From the NCBI GenBank assembly GCA_964016885.1, contig CAXHJY010000499.1, positions 1 through 32,587 of the forward strand: a DNA stretch of 32,587 nucleotides, in the 5' to 3' direction. This stretch comes from Eledone cirrhosa (taxonomy: Eukaryota). Made by a program: the position numbers and the translations under genes. This document shows, piece after piece, positions 1,609 through 18,651 of the stretch. A model generated the notes under the pieces. That model did not search any database and was not told where the DNA came from. It saw only the letters and a program-made list of their open reading frames with translations. Numbering within the stretch: the stretch's first letter is position 1; each line of letters starts with the position of its first letter.

Positions 1609-1740
1609 ACGGAGGAGTTGTGGTAAAGAACCAGATGGACCATAACGCACCAAGTACTCAATACTTAGGGTAGAGTGGGTATAGGAGAAAGTATGTCCCC
1701 AACGGCTTGAGCTCTGCCGTCGGGGTCATACTTTCTCATA
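1609..1740 (+). mobile_element. miniature PLE-type insertion, family C: antisense tail + 20-bp inverted end + 3' half of a hammerhead
   Basis: Flanked by (TA)n. It is the reverse-complement homologue of 10917-11049. Inverted arms gagaaagtatgtcccc/ggggtcatactttctc. The sense part aAC-GGC-ttgagctct-GCC-GTC reads as hammerhead stem III plus a GUC cleavage triplet. Confidence 0.65.
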
Positions 1741-1926
1741 TATATATATATATGTGTGTGTATATGTGTATATATATATATGTGTACACATGAGTGTTCA
1801 GTTAGAATTATTCACATTACCCATTCAAATCCTGCCCAAACATTACTAAAATATGTCAGTCAAATAAATATAGACAATTCCTCCTTATCTGGGATTTGTG
1901 GTCTGTTTGAACCAGATTTAGGAAGC

Positions 1927-2203
1927 ACCATCATCACCATCATCACCATCACCTCCATAAACTCCACCTCCATTACCACCATCACCACCATCACCTCCAT
2001 CACCACCAGCACCTCCATCACCACCAGCACCTCCATCACCACCATCACCTCCATCACCACCATCACCTCCATCATCACCATCACCTCCATCACCTCCATC
2101 ATCACCACCATCACCTCCATCACCACCACCATCACCACCATCACCTCCATCACCACCACCATCACCGCCATCACCGTCACCACCATCACCACCATCACCA
2201 ACA
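1927..2203. repeat. (CAC/CAT/CTC)n trinucleotide repeat
   Basis: Seen directly; it generates the spurious T/I/S and G/D ORFs. Confidence 0.95.
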
Positions 2204-2301
2204 CATGGTGGTGGTGGTGGTGTCACATGACTTAAATGGACCAATGAGAATGTTGTTGAAGTAATCTGCAGAACAATCCAACCATTATTACCACTTTCAC
2301 C

Positions 2302-2790
2302 ACACACACACACACACACACACACACACACACACACACACACACACACACACACACACACACACACACACACACACACACACACACACACACACACACA
2401 CACACACACACACACACACACACACACACACACACACACACACACACACACACACACACACACACACACACACACACACACACACACACACACACACACA
2501 CACACACACACACACACACACACACACACACACACACACACACACACACACACACACACACACACACACACACACACACACACACACACACACACACACA
2601 CACACACACACACACACACACACACACACACACACACACACACACACACACACACACACACACACACACACACACACACACACACACACACACACACACA
2701 CACACACACACACACACACACACACACACACACACACACACACACACACACACACACACACACACACACACACACACACACACACACACA
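2302..2790. repeat. pure (CA)n microsatellite, ~490 bp
   Basis: Uninterrupted CA dinucleotide run. Confidence 0.97.
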
Positions 2791-3133
2791 GAGTTAGAAC
2801 AGAAATGCTTTGTTTCTTTAAAGTTGACACTGGAAAACAAATATGAGACCCTCTTTTGTTAAGTTGAACTATATACATGTGTATATATATACACACACAC
2901 ACATACACATATATACATATATATATATATATATATACATATATATATATATAGAGAGAGAGAGAGAGACAAAGCAGTATCCACTCGCACTTTCCTCACC
3001 CCATCCTTTGTAGTCTGCTGTGTACAGAGAAAATATTTCAATGGATCTTGTTTGCAATATAAGCTGGAAATTTTGGAGTATGTTTAGTTTACCAACTGGT
3101 TTATTGGTTAATCTCTTTGTTAGTCCATTCGGT

Positions 3134-3436
3134 TAACTTTCTTTATCATATTTCTATTGAAAGACATTGTCTATAAGGCATGAATTTGGAGAAATTTCAT
3201 AATATAACTTTCTTATTACCTCTACCTTTATCATATTTCTGTTAAAAGAAACTGTTTATGGTTTTTAAAAGACACTGTCTCTGGTTGTCAAATTATTTTG
3301 ATAGTCAAGAATTTGGAAAACTTTATTAATATAACTTTCTCGTTATTAACCCTTCCATTACCATATTTTTATTAAAAGACATTGTCTATGATTTTAAAAT
3401 CATTTTGACAATAGTTATGTTTCTAAATCTCTCCAA
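3134..3436. mobile_element. three degenerate tandem fragments of a probable DNA-transposon/MITE terminus
   Basis: The motif 'tcatatttctattgaaagacattgtct...gaatttggagaaa...aatataactttc' recurs about three times. One copy begins ttaaccctt; related sequence ending agggtt(aa) occurs at ~14830-14930 and ~19992-20064. Confidence 0.45.
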
Positions 3437-3439
3437 ATA

Positions 3440-14596: not shown

Positions 14597-14932
14597 TATA
14601 TATATAATGTAGATATTTGTATATATAAAAATCGAAACCCTGTTTATAAACAGCTAATCAACACCTTGTTTAGCTGGCAAATATACCCCCTGCCCCTGTT
14701 TAATGTGTTTGGTCACATGTTCCTCAGCTTAAATTCGTGTGTACCAGTACTTCAATAAAATTAAGACAAATGGTTTTAATTAAAAATATATTTCTTAAGT
14801 AATGTTCTAATTAACAGTTTAGCAATTAATTATTTTATTAAATTTCCTCCAATTTTTTGATTAATTTCAAAATTAATTGAAACTTCATAGGCAGTGTATT
14901 TCATTATAAATACAGTAACAAAAGGGTTAAAT

Positions 14933-16673
14933 TCCTGGTCTACGGCTGTGATTTGGTGGTGTTAGAGCTTGGGATTAAAAGGTGTGTGGTACCCCAGTCT
15001 AGGACTGTGAATTGGTGGTGTTAGAGCTTGTGATTTAAAGCTGTGTGGTACCCCAGTCTAGGACTGTGAATTGGTGGTGTTAAAGCTTGGGATTAAAAGG
15101 TGTGTGGTACCCCAGTCTAGGACTGTGAATTGGTGGTGTTAAAGCTTGGGATTAAAAGGTGTGTGGTACCCCAGTCTAGGACTGTGAATTGGTGGTGTTA
15201 AAGCTTGGGATTAAAAGGTGTGTGGTACCCCAGTCTAGGACTGTGAATTGGTGGTGTTAAAGCTTGGGATTAAAAGGTGTGTGGTACCCCAGTCTAGGAC
15301 TGTGAATTGGTGGTGTTAAAGCTTGGGATTAAAAGGTGTGTGGTACCCCAGTCTAGGACTGTGAATTGGTGGTGTTAAAGCTTGGGATTAAAAGGTGTGT
15401 GGTACCCCAGTCTAGGACTGTGAATTGGTGGTGTTAGAGCTTGGGATTAAAAGGTGTGTGGTACCCCAGTCTAGGACTGTGAATTGGTGGTGTTAGAGCT
15501 TGTGATTTAAAGCTGTGTGGTACCCCAGTCTAGGACTGTGAATTGGTGGTGTTAGAGCTTGTGATTTAAAGCTGTGTGGTACCCCAGTCTAGGACTGTGA
15601 ATTGGTGGTGTTAGAGCTTGGGATTAAAAGGTGTGTGGTACCCCAGTCTAGGACTGTGAATTGGTGGTGTTAGAGCTTGTGATTTAAAGCTGTGTGGTAC
15701 CCCAGTCTAGGACTGTGAATTGGTGGTGTTAAAGCTTGGGATTAAAAGGTGTGTGGTACCCCAGTCTAGGACTGTGAATTGGTGGTGTTAAAGCTTGGGA
15801 TTAAAAGGTGTGTGGTACCCCAGTCTAGGACTGTGAATTGGTGGTGTTAAAGCTTGGGATTAAAAGGTGTGTGGTACCCCAGTCTAGGACTGTGAATTGG
15901 TGGTGTTAAAGCTTGGGATTAAAAGGTGTGTGGTACCCCAGTCTAGGACTGTGAATTGGTGGTGTTAAAGCTTGGGATTAAAAGGTGTGTGGTACCCCAG
16001 TCTAGGACTGTGAATTGGTGGTGTTAAAGCTTGGGATTAAAAGGTGTGTGGTACCCCAGTCTAGGACTGTGAATTGGTGGTGTTAAAGCTTGGGATTAAA
16101 AGGTGTGTGGTACCCCAGTCTAGGACTGTGAATTGGTGGTGTTAGAGCTTGTGATTTAAAGCTGTGTGGTACCCCAGTCTAGGACTGTGAATTGGTGGTG
16201 TTAGAGCTTGGGATTAAAAGGTGTGTGGTACCCCAGTCTAGGACTGTGAATTGGTGGTGTTAGAGCTTGTGATTTAAAGCTGTGTGGTACCCCAGTCTAG
16301 GACTGTGAATTGGTGGTGTTAGAGCTTGTGATTTAAAGCTGTGTGGTACCCCAGTCTAGGACTGTGAATTGGTGGTGTTAGAGCTTGGGATTAAAAGGTG
16401 TGTGGTACCCCAGTCTAGGACTGTGAATTGGTGGTGTTAGAGCTTGTGATTTAAAGCTGTGTGGTACCCCAGTCTAGGACTGTGAATTGGTGGTGTTAAA
16501 GCTTGGGATTAAAAGGTGTGTGGTACCCCAGTCTAGGACTGTGAATTGGTGGTGTTAAAGCTTGGGATTAAAAGGTGTGTGGTACCCCAGTCTAGGACTG
16601 TGAATTGGTGGTGTTAAAGCTTGGGATTAAAAGGTGTGTGGTACCCCAGTCTAGGACTGTGAATTGGTGGTGT
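14933..16673. repeat. 59-bp minisatellite, ~29.5 copies, three variants
   Basis: Unit ccccagtctaggactgtgaattggtggtgttaaagcttgggattaaaaggtgtgtggta; no spacers. Confidence 0.97.
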
Positions 16674-17819
16674 GTAGATATGTATGTATATAGACATGTA
16701 TATATATATGTGTATAGACATGTATGTATATGGACATGTATATATATGTATGTGTATGTATATGGACATGTATATATATATGTATGTATATGTATATGGA
16801 CATGTATATATATATATGTATGTATATGTATATGGACATGTATATAGACATGTATATATATGTATATGTATGTTTATGTATATAGACATGTATATATATG
16901 TATATAGACATGTATATATATGTATATAGACATGTATATATATGTATGTTTATGTATATAGACATGTATATATATATGTATATGTATATGGACATGTATA
17001 TATATATATGTATATATATATATATATGTATATGGACATGTATATATATATATGTATATATATATGAATGTATATGTATATGGACATATGTATATATATA
17101 TATGTATATGTATATGGACATATGTATATATATATATATGTATGTATATGTATATGGACATATATATATATATATATATATATATATATGTATGTATATG
17201 TATATGGACATATATATGTATATGTATATATATATATATATATGTATATGTATATGGACATATATATGTATATGTATATATATATATATATATATATATG
17301 TATGTATATGTATATGGACATATATATGTATATGTATATATATATATATGTATGTATATGGATATGGACATATATGTATATGTATATATATATATATATA
17401 TATATGTATGTATATGTATATGGACATATATATGTATATGTATATATATATATATGTATGTATATGGATATGGACATATATATATATATATATATATATA
17501 TATATATATATGGACATGTATGTATATATATATATATATGGACATGTATGTATATATATATATATATGGACATGTATGTATATATATATATATATATGGA
17601 CATGTATGTATATATATATATATATATGGACATGTATGTATATATATATATATATATATGGACATGTATGTATATATATATATATATATATGGACATGTA
17701 TGTATATATATATATATATATGGACATGTATGTATATATATATATATATATGGACATGTATGTATATATATATATATATGTATGTATATGGATATGGATA
17801 TATATATATATATATATAT
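16674..17819. repeat. (TA)n/GGACATG compound microsatellite
   Basis: Seen directly; it resumes at 18277-18470 after the PLE insertion. Confidence 0.93.
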
Positions 17820-17941
17820 GGAAAGTTATATTTAAATTGTTGGGTTACAACTAGTAAATATTTATAACTGATATAAAAGCACTCAACAAGTATTTGGAGT
17901 ATATTTACGATATTAAATAAATCGAAACTATATTTATAAAA

Positions 17942-18022
17942 CCATATTTATTTCATTATATATATTTCAGGGATATCATATTAACAATATGTTATGCCTT
18001 CCTCAGACAAAATACAATATAG
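17942..18022 (-). ncRNA. type I hammerhead ribozyme (family A, inverted arm)
   Basis: Reverse complement of 18160-18240. Confidence 0.8.
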
Positions 18023-18159
18023 ACAGTTTTATAGATAAATAGATTTGACATACCGTTCAACATCGACTTGTATTTGAAAAAGTTGATTTGGCAGATCAAC
18101 TTTTTCAAATACAAGTCGATGTTGAACGGTATGTGAAATCTATTTATCTATAAAACTGT

Positions 18160-18240
18160 CTATATTGTATTTTGTCTGAGGAAGGCATAACATATTGTTA
18201 ATATGATATCCCTGAAATATATATAATGAAATAAATATGG
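18160..18240 (+). ncRNA. type I hammerhead ribozyme (family A)
   Basis: CTGAGGA 18176-18182; stem II agg-c-ata-a-catatt-gtt-aatatg-a-tat-c-cct; GAAA 18214-18217; stem III ATATATAT; AUA site with cleavage after 18225; stem I 18160-18175 pairs with 18226-18240 with one bulge. Confidence 0.82.
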
Positions 18241-18651
18241 TTTTATAAATATAGTTTCCATTTATTTAATATCGTATATATATATATGTAGATGGACATG
18301 TATGTATATGTATATATATGTAGGACATGTATGTATATGTATGTAGATGGACATGTATGTGTATGTATATATATATGTAGATGGACATGTATGTATATGT
18401 ATATATATGTAGATGGACATGTATATATATATATATATATATATATATATATATATATATATAGACAGACATGTATCATCATCGACAATGTCTATTTTCC
18501 ACCGTAGCATGGGTTAGACAGGTTTGTCCCATTTAGAGGCAAGTTGGGTCGATGGATGTATGTGTAAATATATATATATATATATATATATATATATATA
18601 TATATATATATATGCTGACATGTATGTATGTAGACATGTATGTATGTGTAT

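Follow-up and report, generated by a model that had tools for sequence, protein, structure and literature searches.

The window analysed here, one entire 32.6-kb contig (CAXHJY010000499.1) of the 3.0-Gb assembly of Eledone cirrhosa, contains six insertions that adjoin TA tracts. These insertions belong to four families of Penelope-like elements (PLEs), and we consider it probable that at each one both ends of a cut (TA)n tract primed reverse transcription of sense RNA, with the two complementary DNAs (cDNAs) then joined head to head. A sequence-only reading of the window had described six inserts composed of a tail, an inverted arm and a tail-less piece, and self-comparison of the window recovered all of them to within a few bases. 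It was also right that TA tracts lie beside all six and that an identical compound microsatellite unit flanks both sides of the inserts at 7804, 10917, 11199 and 17820. Two inserts belong to family A (7804-10569 and 17820-18275), two to family B (1608-1738 and 10917-11049), and one each to family C (11200-11482) and family D (10626-10747). Measured against longer genomic copies, the tails are 86 nt in A, 81 nt in B, 71 nt in C and 63 nt in D. The inverted overlap differs from insert to insert (∼25 nt at 1609, ∼9 nt at 7804, 30 nt at 10624, 0 at 10917, ∼102 nt at 11199 and ∼188 nt at 17820). Since the arms within inserts are 84–98% identical and each family recurs genome-wide, the inserts are not due to chance.

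Exact-pattern searches of the genome gave 1,715 matches to the tail end of family A and 3,310 to its tail-less end followed by TA, together with 22,044 matches for family B and 10,171 for family C; for family D there were 713 candidate matches, of which 40 were scored. Families B, C and D had the same layout as family A. Raw DNA reads from two other samples contained strand-switch joints at 10 place pairs and showed the tail-less end running into TA. As these joints occur in raw reads of other samples, an assembly artefact is unlikely (library chimeras could contribute). To follow the pairing of ends, family A was sampled as 83 of the first 100 tail matches listed on contig C1; two loci were picked for being tandem. 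Removal of nine internal tandem junctions, one duplicate, one partial carrier arm and one repeat match left 71 tail ends that abut flanking DNA. An inverted tail-less arm ending in TA accompanied 53 of these, while five had an inverted arm with an unresolved end, three were copies of one carried palindrome and one had two tails. Starting from 30 tail-less ends instead, 10 resolved to a tail in the locus, six lay in tail-anchored insertions already counted, seven ran beyond the fetched DNA and one failed; for none of the 30 was a second tail-less end resolved as the partner.

The two arms of an insertion differ in length in either direction. Of 58 two-arm cases from family A, 28 had a tail-less arm that extended further and 16 a tail arm that did so, while in 14 the two ended within 10 nt of each other; arms ranged from 36 bp to over 4 kb. 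Because either arm can extend further, neither can have been made by fold-back copying of its partner. The antisense tail and sense piece of the sequence-only reading were seen, but this orientation is only relative, as shown by the 16 insertions in which the tail-bearing arm extends further. Both arms of an insertion come from one haplotype: discordance between arms was 0.9% at 13 polymorphic columns (44 insertions), compared with 35% over 2,000 shuffles (minimum 25%), and private variants also agreed between the two arms. The junctions between arms were diverse. Among 45 from family A, 22 had microhomology of at least 2 nt, four had 1 nt, five were blunt and 14 contained fillers, often short repeats of neighbouring sequence. 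The independent arm lengths and varied junctions support the earlier proposal that two oppositely primed cDNAs are joined at each insertion. Neither of the patterns named in advance as evidence against it was found, i.e. fixed arm lengths with MITE-type (miniature inverted-repeat transposable element) target-site duplications, or tails usually in sense at the 3′ end. Two-family chimeras amounted to one ambiguous locus (L121), in which a family A tail-less arm lies head to head with a B-like end, as a two-family insertion or a nested one.

The tail is not the end of the element. In tandem copies it reads straight on into a leader and open reading frame (ORF), and 8 of 51 tail ends carried extra leader-matching bases before the TA tract. 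Both starts of copying therefore look internal, and the suggestion that one cDNA begins at the RNA 3′ end is not supported. Short AT-like sequence after both start sites could pair with a (TA)n primer.

Arm ends accumulate at one position in each family. For family A, 28 of 116 ends fell in a 15-nt window at TCACT, with 14 in the 67 nt before it and nine in the 69 nt after. In family B, 19 of 30 arms ended at T(C/T)AGT, 29 nt behind a TATA-like box. Ahead of the search, the TATA box of family C had been used to predict its pile-up base; of 30 ends, 15 lay at -6 to +8, two further inside and 13 at least 88 nt upstream, with none at -7 to -87 (two pairs in this count are arms of one insertion). 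For family D, 23 of the 31 arms reaching the region ended 30 nt behind the TATA box. An Initiator-like pile-up base was thus present in all four families, with a TATA box ∼30 nt ahead of it in three. To judge from these motifs, the pile-up likely reflects run-off at the RNA 5′ end, which would generate MITE-sized palindromes from sense RNA. With the short/long cut-off taken from the pile-up, arm lengths in family A were correlated (27 insertions with two short arms, 22 with two long arms and 9 with one of each; Fisher P = 1.4e-7), and the short palindromes had a size ceiling near 460 bp. This hard ceiling at the Initiator-like site had been missed by the sequence-only reading. The 1609 copy had also prompted the idea that the hammerhead cut site is where arms end, but no pile-up near -137 was visible by eye in family A.

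We propose that a (TA)n tract is cut on both strands, with nicks ∼14 nt apart that would leave 3′ overhangs. Both DNA 3′ ends would then prime reverse transcription on sense RNA of a single source (one molecule, or two from the same locus), with one start at the tail end and the other 63-86 nt upstream, possibly with the help of AT-like matches of 2-6 nt in the RNA. The two cDNAs would probably be joined head to head, perhaps by microhomology-mediated repair. If the pile-up site is the RNA 5′ end, priming in the promoter-proximal pseudo-long terminal repeat (pLTR) would yield MITE-sized dead-end palindromes, and priming in the downstream pLTR would yield kilobase-long arms. A staggered cut should be visible in the flanks, and of 72 family A insertions, 18 had an interrupted TA tract near the junction and were informative. 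An exact 14-17 bp duplication was present at 11 of these 18, compared with ∼0.1 for mismatched pairs, which suggests a target duplication of ∼14 bp. In families B, C and D (8, 7 and 10 insertions) too few flanks were informative, with one case of a 13-bp duplication.

Several observations weigh against coordinated priming from both ends. Insertions were sorted into classes manually, on the basis of BLAST tables. The other nine of the 71 tail ends had no inverted partner and the other six of the 30 tail-less ends had no recognisable one; dual priming is therefore not obligatory, or the partner has been lost. Later gene conversion could be partly behind the concordance between arms. Of 30 loci chosen with the 17820 insert as query, eight share its exact junction; these include at least three haplotypes and have differing flanks, but whole-unit copying may account for some. 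Family A has no evident TATA box, and run-off ends had no clear excess of a G derived from the RNA cap (12 of 47 ends in family B and 3 of 14 in family A). For the target duplication, seven informative flanks had no exact match and four of the 11 duplications need a leader-templated base to be read as target (seven do not); the mismatched-pair control also leaves periodic microsatellites uncorrected, and periodic tracts can mimic a duplication.

The same statistics bear on three other explanations. In the first, self-priming on antisense RNA builds the palindrome and an endonuclease trims one end to leave the tail (PMC3846280 and PMC8557442; these papers, PMC11167929 and the preprint below are cited for the available parts of their texts). 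This would account for the shared haplotype, for microhomology of at least 2 nt at 22 of 45 junctions and for the near-symmetric centre of 14 of 58 insertions. It fits poorly with the 44 of 58 that are asymmetric, by up to kilobases, and with fillers at 14 of 45 junctions; moreover, antisense 3′ ends would have to coincide by chance with the sense TATA/Initiator pile-ups of four families, and both tail borders match initiation sites found in vitro (PMC11167929). On the copy statistics, dual priming on sense RNA is to be preferred to this published model, which we consider improbable. Rather less probable is that the short palindromes propagate themselves as MITE-like units and are mobilised intact, either by DNA transposition or through a palindromic RNA. 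The size ceiling in family A, the one junction common to 8 of 30 selected loci and a palindrome that did reach at least 40 places would fit such units, but junctions differ across the unselected sample, the ends are asymmetric with a one-sided tail, and run-off copies of B and D have lost the TATA box. The palindrome that spread was carried as cargo: its copies have flanks in common and bear A>G changes on one strand, which directly inserted copies lack. Least probable of all is that a single tail-end-primed cDNA stalls, folds back and copies itself into a second arm, which predicts the identical haplotypes seen and fits the 16 of 58 cases with a further-reaching tail arm and may act in a minority, but is contradicted as a general rule by 28 of 58 tail-less arms that hold sequence missing from the tail arm (including 7804-10569, 94 nt versus 2.67 kb) and by the inability of a reverse fold-back to make the tail. 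A DNA MITE was rejected on the asymmetric ends, arms of 36 bp to over 4 kb and the ∼14-bp duplication.

Coding sequence links the families to PLEs. Tandem copies of family A have a ∼3.8-kb unit with a 737-aa ORF for a reverse transcriptase (RT) and C-terminal GIY-YIG endonuclease. An RT ORF directly follows the tail in tandem copies of B (L267) and C (L225/L226), and RWR and SDKT motifs are alike in A, B and C. In family A we also saw a CxCx5C linker, no CCHH, and CxxC and CxH around conserved E and N residues. Family D was seen only as its endonuclease part, a CCHH-type GIY-YIG domain in the longer copy L184 with CxxC inside GIY-YIG followed by two His. Neighbours of the PLE ORFs in the ORF atlas were GIY-YIG or RVT_1; Pfam gave nothing significant for the window ORF or one full ORF, and a PDB sequence search gave no match. 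Tandem or partial-tandem pLTRs, inverted truncated copies and one-sided tails are all present. On these sequence features all four families are assigned to PLEs, with A, B and C bearing Hydra-clade motifs. Since the parent families encode a PLE RT and/or GIY-YIG, the view that the MITE-like palindromes are retrotransposition products is upheld. Membership of family D in the Hydra clade was rejected because of its CCHH-type endonuclease, and the idea that family B is purely non-autonomous was dropped once long copies and an RT ORF were found. A predicted hammerhead topology passes in A (CTGAGGA) and in B and D (variant core TTGA-AA) and fails in C at stem II; Rfam found no hammerhead in A, B or C. 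The core of B and D begins TTGA, with A at position 8 (L267:1430-1570; L184). In family B, predicted hammerhead stem II contains both the TATA box and the start site, so that promoter-initiated RNA would be without half of the ribozyme.

One family A palindrome has spread as a whole to at least 40 matches (including L057, L081, L092 and L268-L297), and in 29 of 30 loci it sits in the 3′ untranslated region (UTR) of another Hydra-type PLE. Of 30 loci, 21 could be parsed; in these the palindrome shows, on the carrier sense strand, 696 A>G changes at 48 sites, all in the paired stem, compared with 19 stem changes of other kinds. No A>G was found in the unpaired tail (31 A) or the loop (29 A on that strand), or as a one-strand pattern in directly inserted family A palindromes. 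Most of the changes are shared by descent, some are lineage-specific and two sites are common polymorphisms. A likely explanation is that the RNA was hyper-edited by ADAR and then reverse transcribed, and that the edits became fixed in DNA in more than one such round. Downstream of the carrier ORF (L081:1714-5001), TA-like tracts are broken almost only by sense-strand G (TG 185, CA 7; 20 tracts); that these are edited (UA)n is only a lead, and individual tracts in the window are also strand-biased. As a control, an abundant short interspersed element (SINE) was examined that forms a head-to-head pair in a TA tract at 14253-14588 of the window. A few such pairs occur elsewhere, but singles are the rule. 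None of the 18 readable loci (of 19, chosen on one arm) had an adjacent matching inverted partner, and mobilisation of such pairs by PLEs was dropped as a rule.

The individual window copies illustrate this range of structures. In family B, the insert at 1608-1738 has its antisense tail at 1608 to ∼1681, an arm to ∼1706 and a tail-less sense piece from 1701, with ∼6 nt of microhomology at the junction. The second family B copy (10917-11049) joins a tail-less arm (10917-10972), which ends at +3 of the Initiator-like site, to a tail alone (10975-11049) that begins 7 nt inside the tail. Family D (10626-10747) has a 30-nt tail-less arm inverted relative to a 30-nt arm plus the 63-nt tail. The family C insert (11200-11482) consists of the 71-nt tail with an arm to ∼11372 and a sense piece at 11378-11482; both arms cross the TATA/Initiator region, and on the plus strand of the sense piece (11386-11465) lie the TATA box (11386), the Initiator-like A (11416) and a hammerhead-like CTGATGA..GAAA. 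The larger family A insert has a 2.67-kb 5′-truncated sense arm on the minus strand (7804-10476), extending from the RT C-terminal half through the CxCx5C linker, GIY-YIG, 3′ UTR and pLTR to the tail-less end, with a single in-frame stop in its coding region (9488-9490). Its inverted arm (∼9 nt) and 86-nt tail follow on the plus strand (10476-10569). Next to it, two extra tandem copies of the tail-less end plus flanking microsatellite lie at 7649-7803 with a 64-bp period; the unit, made up of the last 37 nt of the PLE end and 27 nt of flank, occurs 3.4 times over 7649-7863. The family A palindrome at 17820-18275 comprises the 86-nt tail, an arm to 18094 and a sense arm at 18089-18275, and both arms end at, or at most 7 nt from, the Initiator-like site. 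A type-I hammerhead topology is predicted on its plus strand at 18168-18233 (CTGAGGA, stem II, GAAA, palindromic stem III, stem I). The tail-less arms at 7804-7990 and 18089-18275 have in common a C>G variant found in no other sampled arm, including the partner arm at 17820, which suggests local gene conversion or an assembly effect.

Outside these inserts, an older, diverged palindrome at 13941-14229 (69% arm identity, CTGAGGA..GAAA motif) is, from its motif, likely a seventh PLE end. Homogeneous minisatellites occupy 14938-16673 (59 bp), 21632-22583 (30 bp) and 25663-27200 (42 bp), and another repeat is present as two inverted copies, 86% identical and 10 kb apart (18658-19191 and 29254-29800). 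Three open stretches on the plus strand (∼23780-24068, 25363-25651 and 27880-28022) resemble, in their motifs, exons of a putative immunoglobulin-domain gene.

Thousands of young copies make these families a system in which models can be separated, with exact predictions for the RNA start bases, two priming sites and a ∼14-nt stagger. PLE palindromes are prone to mis-annotation as MITEs or microRNA (miRNA) hairpins; miRNA matches were sub-threshold only. Octopus has unusually high double-stranded RNA (dsRNA) potential and hyper-editing, described without repeat annotation (PMC5625713). The repeat landscape here resembles that of octopods, and for an octopod genome these PLE palindromes would be a candidate source of both. 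If the ADAR reading is true, the edited cargo copy preserves, as a natural record, the passage of RNA edits into the genome. More tentatively, and with somewhat less than even confidence, we suggest that coordinated dual priming may be the normal PLE integration route, with one protein dimer extending both target strands from two fixed sites on a single RNA; that run-off at the pLTR start site may produce perfect hairpin inserts by the tens of thousands and make them a major source of octopus dsRNA and hyper-editing; and that PLEs may write the resulting ADAR edits into the germline genome. Among the literature surveyed by title and abstract start, with subscription journals outside its scope, there was no account of run-off PLE palindromes or of ADAR-edited genomic PLE copies. 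PLE anatomy and two internal starts in vitro were already known; the in vivo copy pattern and a probable origin for the MITE-like class are added here.

In L1 twin priming, too, cDNA synthesis on the element RNA starts from both strands of the target, and the products are joined in inverted orientation through microhomology; there, the position of the second priming varies and the two segments cover different stretches. Here, in contrast, the second start is fixed and one stretch of RNA is copied two times. Non-LTR retrozymes (bioRxiv 10.64898/2026.07.22.740005) are likewise short non-coding hammerhead-bearing sequences from PLE pLTRs, but they form head-to-tail tandem arrays, and the short copies here, being single head-to-head insertions, were not taken for retrozymes. 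That PLEs can have an inverted 5′-truncated copy and a one-sided tail has been published (PMC8557442, PMC3846280), in agreement with the inverted, tailed pLTRs that the sequence-only reading had named as known. Families A, B and C resemble the Hydra-clade C-terminal endonuclease-positive PLEs of Craig et al. 2021 (PMC8557442), a likeness based on motifs rather than on a tree: RWR in place of RWK, DKT, the CxCx5C linker, no CCHH and CxxC/CxH around E and N (these last three as seen in family A), a hammerhead-like motif, a (TA)n target, an inverted truncated copy and a one-sided tail. The unit is <3 kb there and 3.8 kb here, tails are 30-40 nt there and 63-86 nt here, and family D differs in its CCHH-type endonuclease.

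The Penelope elements of Adineta vaga (Arkhipova et al. 2013, PMC3846280) also have head-to-head inverted pLTRs, an optional tail, solo pLTRs, and TATA with a TCACT Initiator in the pLTR. Their target-site duplication is 8-10 bp, compared with ∼14 bp here, and antisense self-priming was proposed for them, whereas sense templates are favoured here. In its available text, PMC8557442 treats the way in which inverted, tailed PLE insertions form as an open question, and PMC11167929 leaves it unvalidated. The latter (Frangieh et al. 2024) concerns PAc Poseidon of Anolis, whose protein was shown in vitro to nick and extend both target strands, with reverse transcription starting at two internal sites of the RNA that bound the tail. 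The two tail-bounding RT starts, the use of both strands and the AT-rich target are common to both systems. In the available text of PMC11167929, homology between start site and target is reported to be absent, and one start per strand head to head and run-off palindromes are not described; in Eledone cirrhosa, the genome copies have short AT matches and supply the in vivo pattern.

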